Of a stretch of 64,000 bases of DNA, positions 42,436 to 50,732 are shown in pieces (position 1 is the first letter of the stretch; each line of letters starts with the position of its first letter). Under the pieces are notes generated by a model. It was not told the origin of the DNA and ran no database searches. It worked only from the letters and a program-made list of their open reading frames with translations. The position numbers were made by a program, and so were the translations under genes. Source of the DNA: Escherichia phage muut; sequence record NC_052657.1. The stretch is one strand, 5' to 3'.

Positions 42436-42437
42436 GA

Positions 42438-42584
42438 TTATCCTCCCCAGCGTTTAAAGCCCGTTGCACGGTTGTTTTTTAGCTCTCGTTTTAGTCTCTT
42501 GCAACGGTTTACAAGTGCAAACCGTGCCGGAGTCGTAACAGTAGCGCCGTTTTTGGTGTGAATACTCATTACATATTGTTTCAT
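42438..42584 (-). CDS. small basic protein (48 aa)
   Basis: ATG after hairpin; stop overlaps RBS of next gene. Confidence 0.4.
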   Translation of the reverse strand: MKQYVMSIHTKNGATVTTPARFALVNRCKRLKRELKNNRATGFKRWGG

Positions 42585-42604
42585 AAAGTTTTATCCTATG
42601 TAAG

Positions 42605-42656
42605 CGGGAACTATTCCCGCTTTAAGATAGCTTATCAGGTTTTAGTGCAACGTCAA
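42605..42656 (-). promoter_or_regulatory. promoter plus stem-loop cassette
   Basis: TTGACG-16-TAAGCT then GCGGGAATAGTTCCCGC. Confidence 0.5.
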
Positions 42657-42690
42657 CCGTTTTTTTAATCTTTTTTCATTTCTTTTTTGC

Positions 42691-42744
42691 TTGCTATCTA
42701 TAAAGGAAACGGCTATTATCTTTCTACCGCGCCAACCAGGGCGC
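42691..42744 (+). promoter_or_regulatory. divergent promoter plus stem-loop (plus strand)
   Basis: TTGCTA-17-TATTAT then GCGCC-AACCAG-GGCGC hairpin. Confidence 0.45.
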
Positions 42745-42766
42745 ACATCAAAGAAAGGGCGATACC

Positions 42767-43033
42767 ATGACAAATACCCCTTTACATCTCATGCACTCAT
42801 TGGGCTGGCAAGGCGGCACGGTGCACCAGGTAGCAAGCGCAACGGGCTTAAAGGTTGAAACCGTTCTCAACCTGGGCGATCATAAGGTGGAAGAAATAGA
42901 TCATTTTGATACGTTCGCAAATGGTTATCTATGGGCTTGCAGTGGCGGCGGGGAAAGCAAGATCCCGCCAGGGGCGCGGGGCGACATGTATTTTTGGTTA
43001 GGTGTCCTATCCTGGCAAGAAAACAAAAAATAA
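42767..43033 (+). CDS. hypothetical protein (88 aa)
   Basis: AAGGG RBS; lone plus-strand gene between minus blocks. Confidence 0.5.
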   Translation: MTNTPLHLMHSLGWQGGTVHQVASATGLKVETVLNLGDHKVEEIDHFDTFANGYLWACSGGGESKIPPGARGDMYFWLGVLSWQENKK

Positions 43034-43035
43034 TC

Positions 43036-43064
43036 TTGACAAGCCCAGGGATCGGGCTTATACT
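43036..43064 (+). promoter_or_regulatory. sigma70-like promoter
   Basis: TTGACA-17-TATACT. Confidence 0.5.
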
Positions 43065-43070
43065 GTTTTA

Positions 43071-43170
43071 CATACAGAAGAGGAAGCGCCACCCCCACGG
43101 CGTAAAGGCGGGGCTAACATACCAGGGCACTACTGGTTGGAAGGTTGATCGCCGGTAGCTCGTCTAAAAT
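43071..43170 (+). ncRNA. candidate small structured RNA
   Basis: GC-rich hairpin-rich ~100 nt after the promoter, with no ORF and no RBS. Confidence 0.25.
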
Positions 43171-43314
43171 AAATTTGTAAAGAAATGTAAAGATAAAAAT
43201 AATCGCTTGCTTTTGTTGTTGGTTATGCTATTCTTATTGTATGGCGAGGGGATACGGGAGCGCGAGACAAACACCACCCCTGCGCGTTATTCTCTAAATG
43301 AGAAAATTCTTATT

Positions 43315-43405
43315 TGGTAATGATTCTCATTCTCTTACTGAGAATGATTATCACTTACATAATTAAATGATAATGATTCTCATTTACAAATGAGAATGAT
43401 TATCA
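43315..43405. repeat. cluster of four Fur-box-like palindromes
   Basis: TAATGATTCTCATT, GAGAATGATTATCAC, GATAATGATTCTCAT, GAGAATGATTATCAT. Confidence 0.45.
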
Positions 43406-43430
43406 TCCGCACACCCATAAAAACACGAAA

Positions 43431-43631
43431 TTGAACTTTTCATTTTTGATTTTTCTACGGAAAAAGGCAAAAAAACTTTAAATAAACTGGGGAATTTTTA
43501 AAAAATTGAAGTTTTCATTTTCAAAATCTGGACAGAAATACATACAAAAACTTTAAATAATTTTGACCAAACTTGAACTTTTCATTTTCAAAATTTGTAG
43601 CCAAAAATCTGTAAAAACTTTAAATAATTTT
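43431..43631. repeat. three tandem ~62-67 bp direct repeats
   Basis: Each unit: TTGAA(C/G)TTTTCATTTT(C/T)(A/G)A(A/T)(A/T)T ... AAAAACTTTAAATAA. Confidence 0.55.
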
Positions 43632-43845
43632 ATCCTTTTTATAAAAATGATTTTACTGTTCTGTTATAAATAGTAGTTAAGAGATAATGTGTCTTTTAAA
43701 AGCCAGATAGCATAGTCCAACAAACAAATTAAATAATTTATTAACAGAGTACAGAATAATATTTACTCTGGATATATTATTCAGAGGGTGGATTTCCGTA
43801 CATGAAACCCACACCCCTTTTATAAAAATAAAAATTTTCAAAATA

Positions 43846-44397
43846 TCAGGAAATATCAGATTGTGTTTTTAGATAAACAGCAAGGTCTGTATGCCATTTT
43901 CCTAAAAGATTTTGTCCTTTCCAACAATCCTTGTTTTCAACATTACGATCCCACATCCCCATTTTGATACCATAAATAGAATCATAAGGGCTTGCCTCTA
44001 CGAACTCCTTATCTGCGTAAGCAATAAGTTTATTTTTGAGATCTTCATTTTGTGTGTATTTAAGATACAAACCACGTTCGACAATCTTCTCCCGTAAAGA
44101 AGTCCAGGTATCTTCATCATAATCCTTAACTAATCTACCTAGTCGCTTATAATATGCTTGTTCTTTTTCTCCTGTATATCTTAGATCTCCGGTTAAAATA
44201 GAAGATGCAATATTGTAATCATAAAACAAACATGCTTTTCTCCACATCATATATTGTTCCACACAAGTAAATTCAACATAACTTGTAATAGAATTATTAT
44301 ACTTGGGAGCTAAAGGTTCAATAAAAGATGATAGATACCAGTTGCTAAATTCATCTTTTGCCGAAAAGAAGAACACATACTTATCAGTAATCCGCAT
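43846..44397 (-). CDS. NADAR (YbiA-like) domain protein
   Basis: FSNW, EQYMMWRKACLF, KYTQNEDLKNKL...EASPYDSIYGIKMG, GQNLLGK segments align with the YbiA/NADAR fold. Confidence 0.7.
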   Translation of the reverse strand: MRITDKYVFFFSAKDEFSNWYLSSFIEPLAPKYNNSITSYVEFTCVEQYMMWRKACLFYDYNIASSILTGDLRYTGEKEQAYYKRLGRLVKDYDEDTWTSLREKIVERGLYLKYTQNEDLKNKLIAYADKEFVEASPYDSIYGIKMGMWDRNVENKDCWKGQNLLGKWHTDLAVYLKTQSDIS

Positions 44398-45588
44398 TTA
44401 CACCTCCTTACTGTATACTAATTTGCCACCATATTGTGTAATAATTTTTTGAAGATTTTCCAAATCAGAAACACTTACTGTTTCTGTATAACCATCTTTC
44501 AACTCTCTTTTCGTTAAAATACCAGTTTTTAATTTTTTCTTTATAGCTCTTTCAGCAGCCTTACATTGTTTCACTGTGCTAAAATCATATAAACAAATAC
44601 GCTCCATAAAAAACAGATTACGGCTATTTTGAATGTTTAATCGCCTATCACTATCTTTAGCTATACCAAACTTAAGAGCAACTATAATATTATCATCCTT
44701 AACAATATTAATATATAACTGCTGCTGACTATGACCAGCACACATAGGACAACCTCGACAGCGGCTTAATAAATTATGAGCACTCCCTATCTGCTCACCA
44801 TGCACAAGACAAAGATATTTAAACTTACCTATAGAAGAGGGTTTGGTAATCCAATCTACCCAGACATACCCTTTCCCTTCTACTTCCTTTTTTACCCTAT
44901 AGGTGATCTGGTCTTCTGTATACTGATAGTTCCCACAACGACACGGAATGTACCCTCGTTTAAGGTTATTTCCTTCAGAGTAAAATTTACCATCACAAAC
45001 ACCTGCTTGAACATATTCATCATGAGAGCAAACAGGACATTCAACCATCCAGATACTATGCCTGCGTCCTTTACTCCGTGTTCCTGTGTTAGTGAAGATA
45101 GTGCCTTCCTTAAATTTCCCTGTAGAAAAGAAATCTGCAATATGTTGATCGTCGGGCATTGTTAGTGCCTTCCTTGTATTCTCCCCCCTACATTGTGGAC
45201 AACCTCGACCGCCTTTAAATTGATGAATTGCTGTACTTTGCCATCTATTCCCACAATGGCACAACAAATCAAGTTTTGTTTTATTCCCTTTCCATTCTCC
45301 AACGTACCCTAACACCTGATACCCCTTCTTCTGTGCTATCTCTTCCAAGATCGGCAATTCTGTTTCCCATGTTAACGGCTTCTTACCAGAACAGATAGGA
45401 CAACTGTTGCCGCGCTTGAAATTACTAATACTACAAGTCTTCCATTCATGTTCCTGCCTACAGCGTAGAATCATTTTCGTATCACAACCTATAAACGGTT
45501 CAACATATCCTAGGATCTCAATCCCTTTATTATTCGCAATAGGTTGACACTCTTCTTTATATTGTTCCCATGATTTTGGTGCTGCCAT
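44398..45588 (-). CDS. zinc-ribbon repeat protein with C-terminal T5orf172/GIY-YIG-like domain
   Basis: Repeated C..C...CP.C modules; C-terminal KFGIAKDSDRR...DGYTE segment similar to 49258..50256. Confidence 0.4.
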   Translation of the reverse strand: MAAPKSWEQYKEECQPIANNKGIEILGYVEPFIGCDTKMILRCRQEHEWKTCSISNFKRGNSCPICSGKKPLTWETELPILEEIAQKKGYQVLGYVGEWKGNKTKLDLLCHCGNRWQSTAIHQFKGGRGCPQCRGENTRKALTMPDDQHIADFFSTGKFKEGTIFTNTGTRSKGRRHSIWMVECPVCSHDEYVQAGVCDGKFYSEGNNLKRGYIPCRCGNYQYTEDQITYRVKKEVEGKGYVWVDWITKPSSIGKFKYLCLVHGEQIGSAHNLLSRCRGCPMCAGHSQQQLYINIVKDDNIIVALKFGIAKDSDRRLNIQNSRNLFFMERICLYDFSTVKQCKAAERAIKKKLKTGILTKRELKDGYTETVSVSDLENLQKIITQYGGKLVYSKEV

Positions 45589-45626
45589 CTACTACTCCTC
45601 TTATTAAATCTGGCATTAATGCAAGA

Positions 45627-45652
45627 AAACCCGCCGAAGCGGGTTTTTATTT
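45627..45652. terminator. rho-independent terminator (bidirectional)
   Basis: AAACCCGC-CGAA-GCGGGTTT flanked by T-runs. Confidence 0.55.
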
Positions 45653-45662
45653 GCTGGCTTAC

Positions 45663-46790
45663 TTAAAACACACTTGCCAAAGTTGCACCATTGGTGATAG
45701 TTGGTTCCAGAACAATACGGAAAGAATCTTCTGGATCATCACTAAACACAACGATTTTACCGCCTGTAATAAGATCTGCTTTCATTTTTGTCGCATTCAA
45801 TGGAATTCGAGCATCGCCTTCATCATCAAAAACCACGTAAGAGCTATTAGCAAGGGCTTCTTTAGAATCTGCATCACTTGGAGATGACAAGTACACGTCC
45901 AGTGTGCACGAACCACCTAAAAAGATTGCAGGTGTGAAGTTATGCCAACTAGATACCCAGCTAACTTTCTGAAGTTTCCCATTAATAACAACACTGCTGA
46001 TATCCCATTTATTACCACCACCTAAAGAAACACCCATCATAGAGATGCATTCTTTAAAGGATAAATCAGGGTAGAAATTAAGTTCTTCTACTATACCTTG
46101 GATCACATCAAAGGACAACTCTAAACTTACATCCCAAAGTCTTTGGAAATTATCAAAGTGTGCTTTGTTATCCAGGTTTTTATCTAAATAGTCCATCATA
46201 GTTTCTAGTGAGATTTTATCATAATTAAAATTATAAAACACACGACTAGGACGATTTAAAAAGAATTCAGAGATAAAGCCACTGTTTTTAGTCAGAATAA
46301 ACAGTTTATTACCACTGCCAGTACCATCTAACAAAGTGAGAAGTGCTTCTTGATCTTGTTTCTTCTCATATACTTTATCAAATTCATCAAAAATAATCAC
46401 TGCTTTGTCTGTGATCTTGCTAATAAGTTCAATGAAATTAGCATCACTGTAGGCTTGAGTAACCATAATAGTTGGAATACCTTCTTCTACAAGGTCACGA
46501 CTAATGAGTTTGGCTAACATAGTTTTACCACTGCCCTTAGTGCCTGTCAGGAGCAAACCTGTATTTTTACCTTGTGCACTCCGGCGATGGAATGTACGAA
46601 TAACGTGATTTGCTCGTTTTTCTGTTTCACCATACAGAACATCCGGTACACCTGTTAGATTACCACGGCTTAAAAAGTAATTGCCAAGGGGATCACGACT
46701 AACAGTATAGAATCCAGGTGGAAGATAGTTAGATTCCACGCCCATATCTTTATTTACACTTACAATATCACCATAAATCGTGTATTTCAT
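45663..46790 (-). CDS. P-loop ATPase, paralog 1
   Basis: Walker A GTKGSGKT, Walker B IIFDEFDK; ~50% identical to 62498..63658. Confidence 0.6.
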   Translation of the reverse strand: MKYTIYGDIVSVNKDMGVESNYLPPGFYTVSRDPLGNYFLSRGNLTGVPDVLYGETEKRANHVIRTFHRRSAQGKNTGLLLTGTKGSGKTMLAKLISRDLVEEGIPTIMVTQAYSDANFIELISKITDKAVIIFDEFDKVYEKKQDQEALLTLLDGTGSGNKLFILTKNSGFISEFFLNRPSRVFYNFNYDKISLETMMDYLDKNLDNKAHFDNFQRLWDVSLELSFDVIQGIVEELNFYPDLSFKECISMMGVSLGGGNKWDISSVVINGKLQKVSWVSSWHNFTPAIFLGGSCTLDVYLSSPSDADSKEALANSSYVVFDDEGDARIPLNATKMKADLITGGKIVVFSDDPEDSFRIVLEPTITNGATLASVF

Positions 46791-46801
46791 TTTAACCCCT
46801 T

Positions 46802-47239
46802 TTATTTTTGTTGAGATGAACGAATTAAATCAGCAGCAAATTCAATCAGATACACTTTTGGTGCAATAATGATTTTTAGCCAATCAAAATTCGAAAAGAA
46901 AATAACAAATCCTAAAAAGAAAAAGAAAGCACAGACAACAAGACCAACAATAGGTAAAGCAGATACTTCACCATAGCGATCTCGTGACCACAGGCATTCT
47001 TTATCTTTAATTGCTTTTACGAGGTTCCGTACAGCAATAAAAGTAATAAACATAAAGCAAATACTAAAAAGTTGCCATAAACCTGCGGATACTGCTTTCC
47101 ACACTAATAATTGATGAATTACTTCTGGAATTTGTTGTTTTCCAAACTCTACAACATCACTCATTGTTTGAATAGTGACGTTAACCATGTTCAGAAGTAC
47201 ATCAGTTGCTTTATCTGCGATTGCGTTTGTTTTACTCAT
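46802..47239 (-). CDS. membrane protein (145 aa)
   Basis: GAGGA RBS; several hydrophobic segments. Confidence 0.5.
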   Translation of the reverse strand: MSKTNAIADKATDVLLNMVNVTIQTMSDVVEFGKQQIPEVIHQLLVWKAVSAGLWQLFSICFMFITFIAVRNLVKAIKDKECLWSRDRYGEVSALPIVGLVVCAFFFFLGFVIFFSNFDWLKIIIAPKVYLIEFAADLIRSSQQK

Positions 47240-47253
47240 TCTTTATTCCTCAC

Positions 47254-47427
47254 TTACCTTTTAAGGAAACCAATCATAATGAAGAACCACATCCAGGCAG
47301 GAGAGATAATAAAGCCAAAGAAACCGCAAATAACCGCTTTCTTAATCTCTTCCAGACAACCCACCAGGAAAAGAACGAGTGAGACTACAATCCAGATAGC
47401 CATAAATACTGTAACAAAGAAACTCAT
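47254..47427 (-). CDS. small membrane protein (57 aa)
   Basis: GGAGAAAGG RBS; two hydrophobic segments; plus-strand ORF here looks spurious. Confidence 0.45.
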   Translation of the reverse strand: MSFFVTVFMAIWIVVSLVLFLVGCLEEIKKAVICGFFGFIISPAWMWFFIMIGFLKR

Positions 47428-47447
47428 ACCTTTCTCCCATCTGTATT

Positions 47448-47699
47448 TTAAAATTCAACCACTACTTTATCGAGATGCTCTGCTTCAACTTGATCTAAGG
47501 TTAACACCTCAACTAAACCTTTGTCAATACCTAATTTAATAACATCAACATATTGTCCAAACAGATCCTGAATAGATATCTTGTGTTCGACAACAACCAC
47601 CACTTCATTTCCTTTTGTGAATTCTCTCCATACACGTCCACATTTGAAAATAAAGTCTGCTTCGTCTTCTGTTATCATTTTAGGTTTGATACTTAACAT
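47448..47699 (-). CDS. hypothetical protein (83 aa)
   Basis: ORF. Confidence 0.45.
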   Translation of the reverse strand: MLSIKPKMITEDEADFIFKCGRVWREFTKGNEVVVVVEHKISIQDLFGQYVDVIKLGIDKGLVEVLTLDQVEAEHLDKVVVEF

Positions 47700-48250
47700 T
47701 ATAAAACTCCGTACTCCGGCTCAAAATCATATTTTTCACAAATCATATCCCAGCGTTCGTTGCCGAAGCTGCGACCACAAATTGCATCGTAAGCGTAATG
47801 CTCTGCTAACCATTTTACAACAGTGTCTACATCGTTATCAAGTGGTAATCTGAATTCTTTGCCATATCGCATACGAAGAACAAATTCATCCCCTTCTTCA
47901 AACAAGTGCATATGGCTTTTTGCATAAGAAGCCAGGTTGAAAAAAGATACCTCTTCCCAGCATTCTTTTTCCACTGCAATCCCGTGATCAACAACTAAAG
48001 CACCGATAACGCGATACATAATAGGGCTAAACAGTGCGCTTGGGCTAGGCTGCTCTTCAACTATAGACCAACCTGTTCCCTGCCAAATTTCATTTTTGAA
48101 CCATTGTTGCATGTCATTCCCTTTTTCATCTACAATGGATCGGTTACGCATTTCAAACCATTCTCCTTCGCAAAAGTATTTATGTTTAACGCGCTTGCCT
48201 TTTAACATTGCTTCTTTGGCTTCTATCCAAGTCAGATCGGTGTTTTGCAT
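47699..48250 (-). CDS. hypothetical protein (183 aa)
   Basis: ATG with GAGAGGAG RBS 60 nt inside ORF-track ORF. Confidence 0.5.
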   Translation of the reverse strand: MQNTDLTWIEAKEAMLKGKRVKHKYFCEGEWFEMRNRSIVDEKGNDMQQWFKNEIWQGTGWSIVEEQPSPSALFSPIMYRVIGALVVDHGIAVEKECWEEVSFFNLASYAKSHMHLFEEGDEFVLRMRYGKEFRLPLDNDVDTVVKWLAEHYAYDAICGRSFGNERWDMICEKYDFEPEYGVL

Positions 48251-48369
48251 TCGTTTATCTCCTCTCATTTGTGTATGCATTAAGATTAGCACAATAAAAC
48301 AGTATGTCAATACTTGATCTGAAATTAATTTCTGGTACTCTGTGTGTATCGTAACAAAAGAGGTTAGAT

Positions 48370-48660
48370 ATGAACATCACACTAGCAACTAAGAATATTA
48401 CAGAAACTTTTGATGGTTTTGGCATTATTATTGCTGTTCATGGGCATAACGAAAAATGGTTAGCCTCTTTTGAAGAGGACAAAGAACGCAATGTACGTTT
48501 GAATGCACCAATCAAAGTTTTACACCAGGTAGGTGAGAATAAGAAACAATGGAGATCATACAAAGAGTGGAACATTACGAACGAGTTAATACACAAACTT
48601 GACAAAGTGATAAACATGTTCGACAATGCACCAAGCAGTGCAAAACGTGTTTTACTATAA
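48370..48660 (+). CDS. hypothetical protein (96 aa)
   Basis: AAGAGG RBS. Confidence 0.5.
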   Translation: MNITLATKNITETFDGFGIIIAVHGHNEKWLASFEEDKERNVRLNAPIKVLHQVGENKKQWRSYKEWNITNELIHKLDKVINMFDNAPSSAKRVLL

Positions 48661-48671
48661 AGGAGAGTGAT

Positions 48672-49025
48672 ATGAAAATTGTACACGATGAAATTCAATT
48701 TGAAGAGAGTGATCTTCTTGATCTAGATGTGACACTAAGTAAACTGATCTACAATGCACTTTCTGCATATCGTGCAAAAGTGATAGCCACAAACAATGTT
48801 AAAATTCCTAGTGGGTTACTTCGTCGGATGTACCCACACACTAAAGGTGACTATCTACCTTATATGGAAGAACGAGCAGCAGAACACTGGTTAGAAATTC
48901 TTGAAAAAATGGAGTCTTCTTTTAAGGACTCAACTCCACCAGAAGAAGTTAATGAAAAACAGCGGCAAGATCGTTTAGAAGGTCGTATTTTGTTTGCTAA
49001 GTATTTCCATAATCTGTGGATGTAA
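48672..49025 (+). CDS. hypothetical protein (117 aa)
   Basis: AAGGAGAG RBS. Confidence 0.5.
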   Translation: MKIVHDEIQFEESDLLDLDVTLSKLIYNALSAYRAKVIATNNVKIPSGLLRRMYPHTKGDYLPYMEERAAEHWLEILEKMESSFKDSTPPEEVNEKQRQDRLEGRILFAKYFHNLWM

Positions 49026-49038
49026 TAAGGAGAAAACT

Positions 49039-49206
49039 ATGAGCGAAACCAAGAAACCAATTCCGCGCACTTACCTACACGTTGACCCTGAAATCTTCAA
49101 GGTTTTATTTGCTGAAGCCAAGAAAAGGCAAATTATGGTCAGTGATTTGATGTTAGAAATCATTACTGAAGCAGCAGAGAACATCAAACAAAAAAAGGGT
49201 AAGTGA
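49039..49206 (+). CDS. ribbon-helix-helix-like small DNA-binding protein (55 aa)
   Basis: ATG with AAGGAG RBS; beta-strand then two helices pattern (TYLHVDPEIFKVLFAEAKKRQIMVSDLMLEIITEA). Confidence 0.4.
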   Translation: MSETKKPIPRTYLHVDPEIFKVLFAEAKKRQIMVSDLMLEIITEAAENIKQKKGK

Positions 49207-49257
49207 TCCTCATTCACTTTAGTAGCGCATTAAGCGTGATTTATAAGGAGATTTTTA

Positions 49258-50256
49258 ATGATTAAACATACAAAACCTTTTTTAGGAATAGATTATGACT
49301 TACTAGCAATCACTTCCCTGGTGATTAACGGCAAAACAAAAGAAGTAAAACTACACCATAAGATCATTTATTCTTATTTGTTAAGTTTATCTGGCACATA
49401 CCAAAAGGTAACACCATCTTTGAAAGGTATTGGTGAGCGGTTAGGAGTAGGTACAGATCAGACGGTACGCCGTCATATCAAAGATCTTGTTTCTTTTGGA
49501 TGGTTGAAGATTGAGGAAAGGGCAGGTAGCACAAATGCTTATATTGTCCTTCCTTATGAACAAGAAGCCCAGACACAACAAGAAGCTACTGTTAAAGCTG
49601 TTCCTGATCAGCTTCCCCCTACAGAATGGAAAATGTTTAAAAAATGGTATTCACCATCTGGTAATGAATACACCGCTACACTGCCAGCCGTTGAAATCTA
49701 TAGCTATATAGCTGGATTCAATGAACAAGGGCAAGAATGTTACGCTACTCAAAAAACATTAGCTAATATTGGAATGGTTAGTGATCGTCAGGTACGCAAT
49801 ATTATAAATATGTTTGTTGATATGGGAGTTCTTTCTGTAGAGACACGCCACGGTCAAACATCACTCTATAAAGCATTACCCTTTACAGAGATGAATGTTA
49901 AAAAGCAAAAAAGAGTAAAAGAAATTCCGTACACCGAAAACCAACAATCAAATTGGTGTTTTTATATACAAAAATTGGTTTCTCCGTTTTATACCTGCTT
50001 GAAAGCAGGGATTACGGTAGATATTGATCGTAGAATCAAAGAGCAAAGTAAAAACAGCATGTTTAAGCATTATCTACTTGACAGTTTCAGTGGAGATTAT
50101 GCTACTATTTTCGCTTTGGAGAAAGAAGTTAAAAAATGTTTTAACCGCTCTTTATGCTTAAAAGAGTGGCTACCGGATGGATATACAGAAACATATAATC
50201 TAGAAGATTATGAAAATATAAAAAATTTTGTTAGTGAAAAATTGATTAAGGAGTAA
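49258..50256 (+). CDS. winged-HTH protein with C-terminal T5orf172/GIY-YIG-like domain
   Basis: Two wHTH-like segments; C-terminal LKAGITVDIDRR...DGYTE. Confidence 0.4.
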   Translation: MIKHTKPFLGIDYDLLAITSLVINGKTKEVKLHHKIIYSYLLSLSGTYQKVTPSLKGIGERLGVGTDQTVRRHIKDLVSFGWLKIEERAGSTNAYIVLPYEQEAQTQQEATVKAVPDQLPPTEWKMFKKWYSPSGNEYTATLPAVEIYSYIAGFNEQGQECYATQKTLANIGMVSDRQVRNIINMFVDMGVLSVETRHGQTSLYKALPFTEMNVKKQKRVKEIPYTENQQSNWCFYIQKLVSPFYTCLKAGITVDIDRRIKEQSKNSMFKHYLLDSFSGDYATIFALEKEVKKCFNRSLCLKEWLPDGYTETYNLEDYENIKNFVSEKLIKE

Positions 50257-50258
50257 AC

Positions 50259-50408
50259 ATGGTTATCTACAAAAATAAGTTCACTGGCTGTCTGCGTAAA
50301 TTTATTGACAAAAAAGGGTATGTTTCTGTTGACAATGGTGTTACGTGGGTACAAAATGGCACTTCAGAACAACTGATCAAGGCTTTACCTTACTATGAGG
50401 AGGTTTAA
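50259..50408 (+). CDS. small protein (49 aa)
   Basis: ATG 2 nt after upstream stop; fills gap to next gene exactly. Confidence 0.4.
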   Translation: MVIYKNKFTGCLRKFIDKKGYVSVDNGVTWVQNGTSEQLIKALPYYEEV

Positions 50409-50732
50409 ATGTCCAACAATCTGTTTAGCGTGTCAATTGCACCGCGTGTTAATATTCGCTGTCAGTTTGTTAACTTACCAGGTGTGACACATATCACTTT
50501 AGAGTATGATCCTCGTTCACAAGAGAACCCAATTACAGGCAAGATTGATTCAGCCTACGGCGACTTTCTGATGGATCACCAAGCAATCTTATGTTGTGTG
50601 CAACGCTTACAAGCAGGGTCTTTATACATCTTCAAGAAATCTGTGTTCCAGGAGATTGCTCAAGCGGTTGAGAGTGGTATGGAAACACTTAACAACATGA
50701 TCGAAGCCGCTAACAAAAAGGAGGTTTTATGA
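50409..50732 (+). CDS. hypothetical protein (107 aa)
   Basis: GAGGAGG RBS. Confidence 0.5.
   Translation: MSNNLFSVSIAPRVNIRCQFVNLPGVTHITLEYDPRSQENPITGKIDSAYGDFLMDHQAILCCVQRLQAGSLYIFKKSVFQEIAQAVESGMETLNNMIEAANKKEVL

Follow-up and report, generated by a model that had tools for sequence, protein, structure and literature searches.

Escherichia phage muut encodes two proteins that join a C-terminal domain of T5orf172 type, a predicted nuclease, to different DNA-binding N-termini, and with a probability of roughly 70% we read the first as a protein of T5orf172 homing-type architecture and the second as an Odn-like chimera with a re-targetable head, directed against the origin of a satellite. The model for the latter is Odn (Gp88) of Vibrio phage ICP1, a chimera of the DNA-binding domain of RepA from the satellite PLE and a T5orf172 nuclease (Barth et al. 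2021, eLife, PMC8263062). The sequence analyzed here, referred to as the window, comprises 64 kb of the ~146 kb muut genome; both open reading frames reported in the first-pass annotation are present as given and match QHR65942.1 (muut_145, here protein 1) and QHR65951.1 (muut_154, here protein 2) exactly. Protein 2 is best read by analogy as an Odn-like, origin-directed anti-satellite nuclease rather than as a generic regulator or a homing enzyme, because its first winged helix is a near-perfect copy of the satellite initiator’s origin-binding domain.

That the two proteins share a domain is real, but largely known already: protein 2 is the Muut member of the Inny/Muut/Mt1B1_P17 odn homologs (Barth, Dunham & Seed 2023, NAR Genom Bioinform, PMC10448857, Fig. 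8), where it was published as the Muut ‘odn homolog’ and proposed to be an anti-satellite origin-directed nuclease, and we found no follow-up paper in the literature on these coliphage homologs. What the present analysis adds is an origin-like module of iterons and AT-rich DNA in the satellites, the co-variation of iteron type with the type of Rep/Odn DNA-binding domain, an apparent satellite descent of the small upstream ORF as well, the exact boundaries of the putative exchange with conserved spacer and linker arms beside the swappable domain, the junction anatomy of the cassette, and a comparison of the nuclease domain at the level of its fold. In window coordinates, the features are:

44398..45588, minus strand: protein 1 (muut_145), 396 aa; four CapR-type zinc-finger repeats, then a T5orf172/GIY-YIG-like nuclease domain (aa ~290-396)
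44401..44736, minus strand: nuclease domain of protein 1, aa 285-396 (alignments A1 and A4)
44742..45188, minus strand: central zinc-finger repeats of protein 1, aa ~134-282; mosaic segment
49033..50247, plus strand: cassette of about 1.2 kb with the small ORF and protein 2; missing from most relatives
49039..49206, plus strand: small ORF, 55 aa; ATG at 49039, ribosome-binding site (RBS) AAGGAG at 49028-49033
49207..49257, plus strand: spacer that separates the small ORF from protein 2; proposed as the left recombination arm in exchanges of the DNA-binding domain
49258..50256, plus strand: protein 2 (muut_154), 332 aa; wHTH1, linker, wHTH2, T5orf172/GIY-YIG nuclease
49258..49560, plus strand: wHTH1, the specificity module; 100% nucleotide-identical to the 5' part of satellite rep
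49561..49626, plus strand: linker QEATVKAVPDQLPPTE; proposed right recombination arm, satellite homology stopping at 49626
49627..49920, plus strand: wHTH2, aa ~124-221; phage-specific, constant among three phage alleles
49921..50253, plus strand: nuclease domain of protein 2, aa 222-332
Empty site, arall-type: TAACAAGGAGTGAACATG

A shared C-terminal domain of predicted GIY-YIG type

The C-termini of the two proteins align directly (33% identity over 83 aa, E 3e-9, in a pairwise BLASTP comparison), share the motifs ...LKxGIxxDxDRR... and ...DGYTET..., and are the only two copies of the domain in the 64 kb window. A profile built from both retrieves 745 cluster representatives at E<=1e-3, with the domain C-terminal in nearly all among the 150 matches listed, and the protein 1 ORF reaches 160 bits (E 6e-49) against the A4 profile. 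PHROG 681, labeled ‘endonuclease’, covers the C-terminus of protein 2 and matches protein 1 at 2e-82. Per-sequence Pfam scores for the domain are marginal and the signal is consistent across the domain family: MUG113 reaches 22.5 bits on the whole of protein 2 and 25.0 bits on its isolated domain (cut-off 22.3), T5orf172 reaches 18.4 bits on protein 1, under the cut-off of 20, and of 32 family members 26 touch T5orf172 and 25 MUG113, with no other family recurring. The domain is built as a three-stranded sheet with flanking helices (a β-β-α-β-α-α core), like solved GIY-YIG domains, at Foldseek E-values that are not significant, and its profile detects no sequence similarity to solved GIY-YIG nucleases in the PDB. 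Together, these comparisons support placing the C-terminal domain of both proteins, as a predicted nuclease with a GIY-YIG-type fold, in the T5orf172/MUG113 branch of the superfamily, where the first-pass annotation had put it.

The family-invariant residues are Y236, K249, G251, R259, E288, G308, E311 and T312 (protein 2 numbering), among which Y236, R259, E288 and E311 do not vary in 32 divergent sequences and recur in protein 1. The catalytic classes of GIY-YIG enzymes are present, namely the first-motif Tyr, the helix 1 Arg and a metal-binding Glu, for which E288 and E311 are the candidates; I-TevI and ICP1 Odn likewise require residues of these classes, and the E180A variant of ICP1 Odn is inactive (PMC8263062). 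Unlike the solved GIY-YIG nucleases (Slx1, At-HIGLE, the I-TevI catalytic domain and UPF0213), where the second motif reads Y-I-G, the family has (L/I)-K-x-G at this place, and the canonical second Tyr is not conserved. This replacement would suit a protein 2 that does not cleave, with an inert nuclease domain on a dominant-negative competitor of Rep at the iterons or on a transcriptional regulator, and there is a precedent in PLE CapR, which descends from such endonucleases but is domesticated and does not cleave, and which shows that DNA-binding modules derived from homing endonuclease genes are able to act as repressors (PMC8263062, PMC8096241). We nonetheless consider a non-cleaving protein 2 very unlikely: the Tyr, Arg and Glu of the GIY-YIG core are retained throughout the 32 divergent members, protein 2 included, the nuclease domain is 95-100% conserved in the three phage alleles (segment identity table), which argues for selection on the nuclease, and ICP1 Odn, of the same architecture, does cleave.

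Protein 1 is a resident gene with mosaic zinc-finger repeats

The N-terminal repeats of protein 1, first described as zinc ribbons, turn out to be four CapR-homology zinc-finger repeats (Pfam PF21817, E 2.5e-36, 124.1 bits in four stretches); the source annotation likewise reads ‘CapR homology domain-containing protein’, and the DUF4379 treble-clef model scores 23.2 bits, under its cut-off of 24.5. In its domain order protein 1 resembles the T5orf172 homing endonucleases with CapR-type zinc fingers (PF21817 + PF10544), represented in ICP1 by Gp53, Gp121, Gp130, Gp165 and Gp174 (PMC8096241, PMC10448857), and it is 31% identical (E 1e-26) to ICP1 putative homing endonucleases. Its repeats are also shuffled and vary in number, as has been described for that family: the segment 44742..45188 is unalignable as DNA with phi92 gp222 between flanks that are 96-97% identical (blastn, window against L003), and variants with other repeat numbers measure 246 aa (P0131) and 330 aa (P0132).

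Protein 1, however, is without the presence/absence polymorphism that is the usual mark of active homing, none being seen in the relatives examined from two genera. The locus, between NADAR and ATPase genes, is the same in inny, arall and phi92, and protein 1 is at least 80% covered in 173 phage records (tblastn), including Phapecoctavirus at 47-57% identity. Protein 1 has homing-endonuclease architecture, and active homing is not indicated, because the locus is fixed, the window holds a single copy and only the internal repeats are mosaic; it is a resident gene in its phage subfamily, with shuffling confined to the central zinc-finger repeats. Of the mobile module suggested at first, protein 1 is thus no part, as it keeps the same locus in all relatives examined, whereas the suggestion stands for protein 2 with its variably present cassette of ~1.2 kb.

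The head of protein 2 matches a satellite initiator

The two winged-helix segments noted in protein 2 correspond to two HTH_36 stretches (Pfam, E 3.6e-15), of which the second shares 31% identity with the first and also occurs in a nuclease-free protein (P0074). Of the first 123 residues of protein 2, 122 agree with the Rep protein encoded by a satellite integrated in E. coli, with 303 nt 100% identical. Among 5426 complete E. coli genomes, 64 carry this muut-type head, always at >=95% identity and always on the chromosome. The best explanation, judging from this identity, is that wHTH1 represents a recent copy of the satellite Rep origin-binding domain.

Identity alone is no proof of the direction of transfer, and the N-terminus of protein 2 matches the PHROG replication-initiator, O-like and DnaD-like families of phages, as satellite Rep does at E ~1e-10; both points would also fit a protein 2 that serves the phage’s own replication or another phage function, from which the satellites borrowed an initiator domain. 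We find this hardly credible. The gene is missing from about 95% of close relatives and is therefore not essential for replication, and the phage alleles are without the Rep C-terminal domain (protein alignment). Rep heads of the three types described below are common in bacteria (64, 76 and 169 genomes) and rare in phages, and the 64 kb window is devoid of satellite iterons: iteron A does not occur in it, and iteron B gives two 2-mismatch matches only, at chance level.

Iteron type follows head type in the satellites

The integrated elements carry integrases, a major capsid protein, a tape measure protein (PHROG E 7e-55) and a baseplate protein, a full virion gene set not being present in the satellite; that they are satellites of muut’s phage group is a bioinformatic prediction. 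An origin-like module lies 1.6-1.9 kb upstream of satellite rep, where palindromic iterons, being TGATACCCCTATCA repeats in muut-type satellites such as that of E. coli RM9131, abut a 60-mer of 93% A+T. Among the satellites compared, the iteron cluster is the only replaced block within non-coding DNA that is otherwise 87-98% identical, and across 17 satellites its type goes with that of the Rep head: iteron B in 6/7 muut-type, D in 5/5 inny-type and C in 4/5 Mt1B1-type elements, with almost no cross-occurrence, a correlation among related and phylogenetically non-independent elements. The counts at the level of genomes are in agreement, 63 having the muut-type head and 61 the B-iteron block at >=80% coverage. 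Two satellites, L013 and L021, have no simple fit to the pairing of iterons and heads.

Three heads on one body

The three phage alleles, those of muut, inny and Mt1B1_P17, each have a head of their own, and the body behind it is 95-100% identical among them. The wHTH1 of muut is unrelated to the matching part of the other two alleles, each head is 90-100% DNA-identical to a different resident satellite rep gene, and the three phage alleles pair one-to-one with three satellite Rep types; the nuclease domain, in turn, is lacking in the satellite Rep homologs (protein alignment). On either side of the head lies DNA common to phages and satellites. The spacer is 89-100% kept in all satellites and in inny, with Mt1B1_P17 at 92% over 73% of the segment, and the linker is kept at 84-92% in the phage alleles and at 90-100% in most satellite Rep types, L008 aligning over 27%; in blastn, the identity with inny reaches 49266 and that with L004 begins at 49201. 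The specificity module thus sits between conserved arms, the left one formed by the small ORF and spacer and the right one by the QEATVKAVPxQLPPTE linker. Through these arms, homologous recombination between the phage and a resident satellite could re-target the nuclease of protein 2, and such arm-mediated exchange would explain how three heads come to sit on a near-identical body in muut, inny and Mt1B1_P17.

The small gene reported ahead of protein 2 is present, with its start likely at ATG 49039 rather than at TTG 48994. Its DNA and its protein are 100% identical to those of the small ORF of L009, the protein is 96% identical to inny_185 and 44-46% identical to the small ORFs of L005 and L006, and the satellite counterparts sit directly upstream of rep; from these matches, the small ORF appears to be satellite-derived as well. 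In the CopG-repB replicon control module of pMV158, a small ribbon-helix-helix repressor gene lies directly upstream of rep, and similarly the ORF of ~55 aa adjoins rep on its 5' side in the satellites and protein 2 in the phage. Its strand-helix-turn-helix is in register with CopG and Arc, a resemblance rather than membership, at hhalign probabilities of 1.7% and 3.5%, respectively. Pfam gives no match at E<=10, a PDB profile search yields nothing significant, with an antitoxin at E 0.44, and none of 18 homologs bears an annotation; the small ORF may be a CopG-like (RHH) regulator.

Insertion and distribution of the cassette

Comparison with arall, phi92 and inny sets the breakpoints of the cassette, whose insertion point, between two conserved genes, coincides exactly with the RBS and which has TAAGGAG at both ends (junction alignment). 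Among 78 matching phage records, sequence beyond the flanks is confined to inny, Mt1B1_P17 (two accessions of one phage) and BI-EHEC. Such variable presence and seamless insertion would also be in keeping with a free-standing homing endonuclease that owes its satellite-like head to promiscuous domain shuffling and has no anti-satellite role. Moreover, the nuclease part and the downstream gene are ~94% identical between two genera in which the protein 1 orthologs are only ~55% identical, which suggests their horizontal transfer, and Barth et al. state that homing is not judgeable from sequence alone (PMC10448857). The muut and inny cassettes, however, occupy the identical insertion site despite wholly different heads, which means that the insertion site in the phage is not set by the head; nor does random shuffling predict three heads that each match a different resident satellite rep at the DNA level. 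Homing as the whole account of protein 2 is unlikely in our estimation, and it is also important to note that the homing and anti-satellite readings are compatible, as the constant wHTH2 and nuclease could still home.

Proposed action at the satellite origin and comparison with Odn

Returning to the Odn-like reading of protein 2, by analogy with ICP1 the phage would infect a satellite-bearing cell and protein 2 would take the place of Rep on the palindromic TGATACCCCTATCA iterons, the nuclease joined to the iteron-bound protein would then cleave the satellite origin, and satellite replication would stop, leaving the phage free of parasitism. Protein 2 probably cuts the origin of the very satellite whose Rep head it copies.

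The coliphage odn homologs share one architecture, two RepA_N/HTH_36-type domains followed by T5orf172, in which, as published, only the first domain matches satellite Rep and each allele matches a different satellite type (PMC10448857); the main text of that study leaves iterons unmentioned. Like ICP1 Odn, protein 2 combines a satellite-initiator head with a T5orf172 nuclease in which the catalytic Arg and Glu are conserved, and its predicted targets are palindromic iterons at a satellite origin. For ICP1 Odn, cleavage is proven in vitro and the iterons are needed (PMC8263062), whereas for protein 2 cleavage is expected from this analogy, and the two differ in having independent origins and in phage family, host and satellite family. 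Protein 2 further carries a second, constant winged helix, and its head is HTH_36 in Pfam, with no RepA_N match at E<=1. Finally, whereas the head of ICP1 Odn is merely similar to that of its satellite, the head of protein 2 is near-identical to its counterpart, at 122/123 aa.

A nuclease-type C-terminal domain shared by two phage genes

Both open reading frames (ORFs) for which the first-pass annotation had claimed related C-termini are present as it described them, and their products are exact matches to deposited proteins. They lie in a region to which phi92-like Escherichia myophages (Justusliebigvirus, Stephanstirmvirinae) are 96-98% identical.

Genes referred to in the text
43846..44397, minus strand: NADAR (YbiA-like N-glycosidase) gene (Pfam E 5e-36), beginning directly past the stop codon of protein 1
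44398..45588, minus strand: protein 1 (muut_145, QHR65942.1), 396 aa
45663..46790: AAA ATPase gene, upstream of protein 1
49039..49206: small ORF, 55 aa
49258..50256, plus strand: protein 2 (muut_154, QHR65951.1), 332 aa, with its first winged helix (wHTH1, the head) at 49258..49560

Alignment of the two C-termini bears out their proposed similarity (33% identity over 83 aa, E 3e-9). A word-indexed homology search with the isolated domain gave no matches, and the family was instead collected by exhaustive profile search, where a profile built from both C-termini drew 745 cluster representatives at E<=1e-3. Among the matches listed, the shared domain is C-terminal in nearly all of 150 members and is usually preceded by CapR, DUF723 or DUF4379 zinc fingers. 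Individually, protein 1 scores 18.4 bits against T5orf172, under the Pfam cut-off of 20, and protein 2 is marginal against MUG113 (22.5 bits for the whole protein and 25.0 for the isolated domain, with a cut-off of 22.3); across the family, T5orf172 is touched by 26 of 32 members and MUG113 by 25 of 32, and no other Pfam family recurs. Eight columns are invariant in 32 divergent members (Y236, K249, G251, R259, E288, G308, E311 and T312, in the numbering of protein 2), and an AlphaFold2 model of the domain computed with the 32-member alignment reaches a pLDDT of 91.4 with a beta-beta-alpha-beta-alpha-alpha topology, while neither Foldseek nor a sequence profile returned anything significant for it in the PDB. 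The family-wide Pfam matches and the model lend moderate fold-level support to the T5orf172/GIY-YIG assignment made in the first-pass annotation, which was right, and the shared domain is accordingly described here as a predicted nuclease.

Protein 1 is a fixed member of a catalogued family

In protein 1 the nuclease domain comes after four zinc-finger repeats of the CapR-homology type (Pfam E 2.5e-36). The protein matches PHROG 681 'endonuclease' (2e-82), is 31% identical to putative homing endonucleases of Vibrio phage ICP1 and has orthologues in Phapecoctavirus (47-57% identity); it belongs, as a typical representative, to a catalogued family. CapR itself, the repressor from the ICP1 satellite PLE, is thought to derive from the ICP1-type homing endonuclease family (PMC8096241). 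In every relative inspected the gene occupies the same locus between the NADAR and AAA ATPase genes, which places it inside a tightly packed, conserved operon and not in an intergenic island, and this constancy sets it apart from a typical mobile homing endonuclease gene. Relative to phi92 only the central zinc-finger repeats are replaced (44742-45188), and variants with different repeat numbers exist, the same repeat shuffling as described for the CapR/T5orf172 family (PMC10448857). The observation that opened this analysis is confirmed, and its interpretation, in which both proteins were possible regulators or site-specific nucleases of a mobile module, was right in part only: the predicted nuclease stands for both, and variable presence applies to protein 2.

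Protein 2 belongs to a cassette inserted at a ribosome-binding site

Protein 2 has already been described for phage muut itself: Inny, Muut and Mt1B1_P17 were named as E. coli phages with 'odn homologs' composed of two RepA_N-type domains and T5orf172, with a first domain that in each case matches RepA from another putative E. coli satellite, and on the model of ICP1 Odn an anti-satellite role as origin-directed nucleases was proposed for them (Barth, Dunham and Seed 2023; PMC10448857). For ICP1 Odn the activity is experimentally proven, with cleavage of PLE origins, a requirement for the iterons and loss of activity in the E180A variant (PMC8263062). What we add to the publication is the predicted origin with its iterons, the co-variation of head and iterons, the satellite source of the small ORF, the recombination arms and the structural check of the nuclease domain.

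Compared with arall and phi92, the window contains an insertion of ~1.2 kb (49033-50247) that consists of the small ORF and protein 2 and is placed exactly at the ribosome-binding site between two conserved genes, with TAAGGAG at either end, so that the final codons of protein 2, AAG GAG, double as the ribosome-binding site of the next gene. Phage inny has the cassette with unrelated sequence in place of 49267-49564. The phage collection was searched without the muut record NC_052657, and because of that no collection record matches the cassette in full. A scan for sigma-70 promoters and terminators around the cassette gave sites no more numerous than in shuffled sequence.

A second small insertion, absent from inny and arall, lies just downstream (50407-50718) and includes an ORF of 107 aa (50409..50732; PHROG 3566, function unknown, E 5e-42). 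Mt1B1_P17 has a gene of the same size, gp055, after its odn homolog, and the gene may travel with the nuclease cassette.

The cassette is a mosaic of satellite and phage segments

The first 369 nt of the protein 2 gene are 98-100% identical to a chromosomal gene for a 'helix-turn-helix domain-containing protein', whose product agrees with residues 1-123 at 122 of 123 positions. This satellite protein (Rep, 222 aa) matches phage replication-initiator, O-like and DnaD-like families at E ~1e-10. Of 5426 complete E. coli genomes, 64 contain the head-specific 303 nt, always chromosomally and with at least 95% identity, and the heads of the inny (inny_184) and Mt1B1_P17 (gp053) proteins match other satellites at 90-99%. 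In a six-way alignment each phage head pairs one-to-one with a satellite Rep and is followed in phage proteins and Reps alike by the linker QEATVKAVPxQLPPTE, past which the phage proteins continue into a constant second winged helix (wHTH2) and the nuclease, and the Reps into a conserved acidic C-terminal domain. Single-sequence AlphaFold prediction of full-length protein 2 was unusable (pLDDT 36.5), and the helix-helix-helix-strand-strand order in both winged helices supports their assignment weakly.

Segment-wise best matches of the cassette (segment; best match; identity)
Small ORF and spacer (49207-49257); one satellite lineage (L009, L014); 99-100%
Head (wHTH1); another satellite lineage (L004, L005, L012); 100%
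Linker (49561-49626); phage alleles and most satellites (L008 aligns over only 27%); 84-100%
wHTH2 and nuclease; phage only (inny, Mt1B1_P17); 95-100%

This segment-wise mosaic makes the spacer and linker plausible homologous-recombination arms for head swapping. Metagenome and SRA assemblies supply further odn alleles, on contigs of up to 150 kb, in which an Mt1B1_P17-type head is joined to a muut-like body (P0012, 327 aa; P0013, 321 aa; 83% and 78% identical to protein 2 across 90% of its length); new pairings of head and body therefore exist in nature outside the three published phages. The wHTH2 module, constant among the alleles, may serve to place the nuclease or to contact conserved DNA at the flanks. 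It also occurs, as KMFKKW.SPSG.EYTATLPAVEIYSY...SLYKALPFT, in a protein without the nuclease domain (P0074, 312 aa, from an ENA metagenome contig), a hint as to where the phage-specific half of the chimera came from.

The small ORF, too, is satellite DNA: it is 100% identical in nucleotide and protein sequence to the L009 ORF that immediately precedes rep, and only 66% (nucleotide) and 44-46% (protein) identical to its counterpart in satellites with the muut-type head. Its pattern of strand (RTYLHV), helix, turn and helix is in register with CopG/Arc at hhalign probabilities of 1.7% and 3.5%, and the ribbon-helix-helix resemblance suggested in the first-pass annotation drew no support from Pfam, a PDB profile, hhalign or 18 unannotated homologues. 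CopG-repB control modules have a small ORF immediately upstream of rep, and the position of the present one recalls them, as a lead only.

Iteron type follows head type in the satellites

The elements that bear the head encode a serine recombinase, a tyrosine integrase, a major capsid protein, a tape measure protein (PHROG E 7e-55) and a baseplate protein and sit in a lysR-family gene or beside tRNA genes, in agreement with the published description of these putative satellites. Located 1.6-1.9 kb upstream of rep, a non-coding gap of 2.1 kb holds near-palindromic iteron clusters that directly abut a 60-mer of 93% A+T, and we regard iterons and 60-mer as the candidate satellite origin. An arrangement like that of lambda O was considered and rejected: the stretches within and downstream of rep contain no iterons, and the cluster is located upstream. 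DnaA boxes were looked for beside the iterons and none was found. The non-coding DNA of the gap is 87-98% identical among satellites, and the one block replaced is the iteron cluster.

Head-linked iterons (type; sequence; copies; occurrence)
B; TGATACCCCTATCA; 3-5; 6/7 satellites with the muut-type head, the exception having IS3 upstream
D; GTAACGATACGTTAC; 5-6; 5/5 inny-type satellites
C; ACAGAATTCTGT...CCCCC; 5-6; 4/5 Mt1B1-type satellites

Iteron type co-varies with head type in 17 satellites with almost no cross-occurrence, and genome-wide the B-iteron block is found in 61 genomes versus 63 for the head, at a coverage of at least 80%. Example clusters are those of E. coli RM9131 for type B (NZ_CP028429, around 3516777-3516982), strain 135 for type D and NGF1 for type C. 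The main text of the earlier publication makes no mention of iterons for these satellites (PMC10448857).

A second, more variable iteron layer lies upstream of the head-linked iterons (L005 7078-7193, compared with L004, L006 and L009). Iteron type A (GGGGTAGTTCACTATGAGCTA) is present five times, in L005 only, with no copy in the phage window, and L004, which has a muut-type head, also holds type C copies; mosaicism extends to the origin region, where a single satellite can have iterons of two types. An IS element (IS3 or IS66) lies within rep or a short way upstream of it in 3 of the 7 satellites sampled that have the muut-type head (L004 14001-15858; L010 3001-6053; L013 1436-2598), and L006 and L008 are truncated remnants beside thiM with a GmrSD restriction gene. 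Many satellite copies may be decaying, or rep inactivation may be selected.

A possible re-programmable anti-satellite nuclease

In the inferred mechanism the iterons would be bound by both Rep and Odn, and protein 2 would cleave at them and block satellite replication to the phage's benefit. Beyond this, the odn locus may be re-programmable, with a probability slightly short of one half (about 0.45). Its head is flanked by arms, the small ORF with the spacer on one side and the linker on the other, that the phage shares with the whole satellite family. On infecting a cell with a non-cognate satellite, a phage could then take over the Rep head of that satellite through homologous recombination and so gain resistance to it, and iterons B, C and D would be the specific sites of binding or cleavage. 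An additional action on the satellite rep promoter is conceivable for the small ORF transferred along with the head.

Plain homing would account for a cassette that is variably present and apparently transferred between genera, but the head changes while the insertion site stays constant. The invariance of the catalytic-type residues speaks against protein 2 as a non-cleaving competitor or repressor. A role as the phage's own replication initiator we reject, since most relatives lack the gene and the window lacks the iterons, type B giving two matches only, at chance level.

If the published hypothesis is right, this locus would be a second, independently evolved case after ICP1 Odn, in which a lytic phage turns the nuclease domain of a homing endonuclease on a parasitic satellite with an origin-binding domain copied from the satellite itself. 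Now that iteron types and exchange boundaries are defined, the hypothesis is open to direct test in E. coli: three phage alleles, with as many Rep types and iteron types, allow nine combinations for binding and cleavage, of which the three cognate pairs alone are expected to work, and the system could show how specificity is re-programmed by recombination in phage-satellite arms races. Both phage genes, now annotated as 'hypothetical protein' or 'endonuclease', could be given more precise names.

Other features of the phage region

Transcription diverges at ~48310-48370: protein 1 and the other genes on the left are encoded on the minus strand, protein 2 and the others on the right on the plus strand, and a change of GC-skew sign around 48 kb agrees with this point. 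The interval 42436-43845 is long, mostly non-coding, marked by a GC dip (0.33) and annotated in phage inny as repeat_region; it could serve the phage in regulation or as an origin.

Tandem repeats in this interval
43339-43400: 29 bp unit, 2.1 copies, containing the palindrome TGATAATGATTATCA
43502-43631: 67 bp unit, 1.9 copies

Four records of ~146 kb labelled 'Campylobacter phage' A150, C3, A145 and A110a (MG065639, MG065656, MG065645 and MG065689) are ~97% identical to this coliphage region, and probably either their host label is wrong or the sequences are contaminants.
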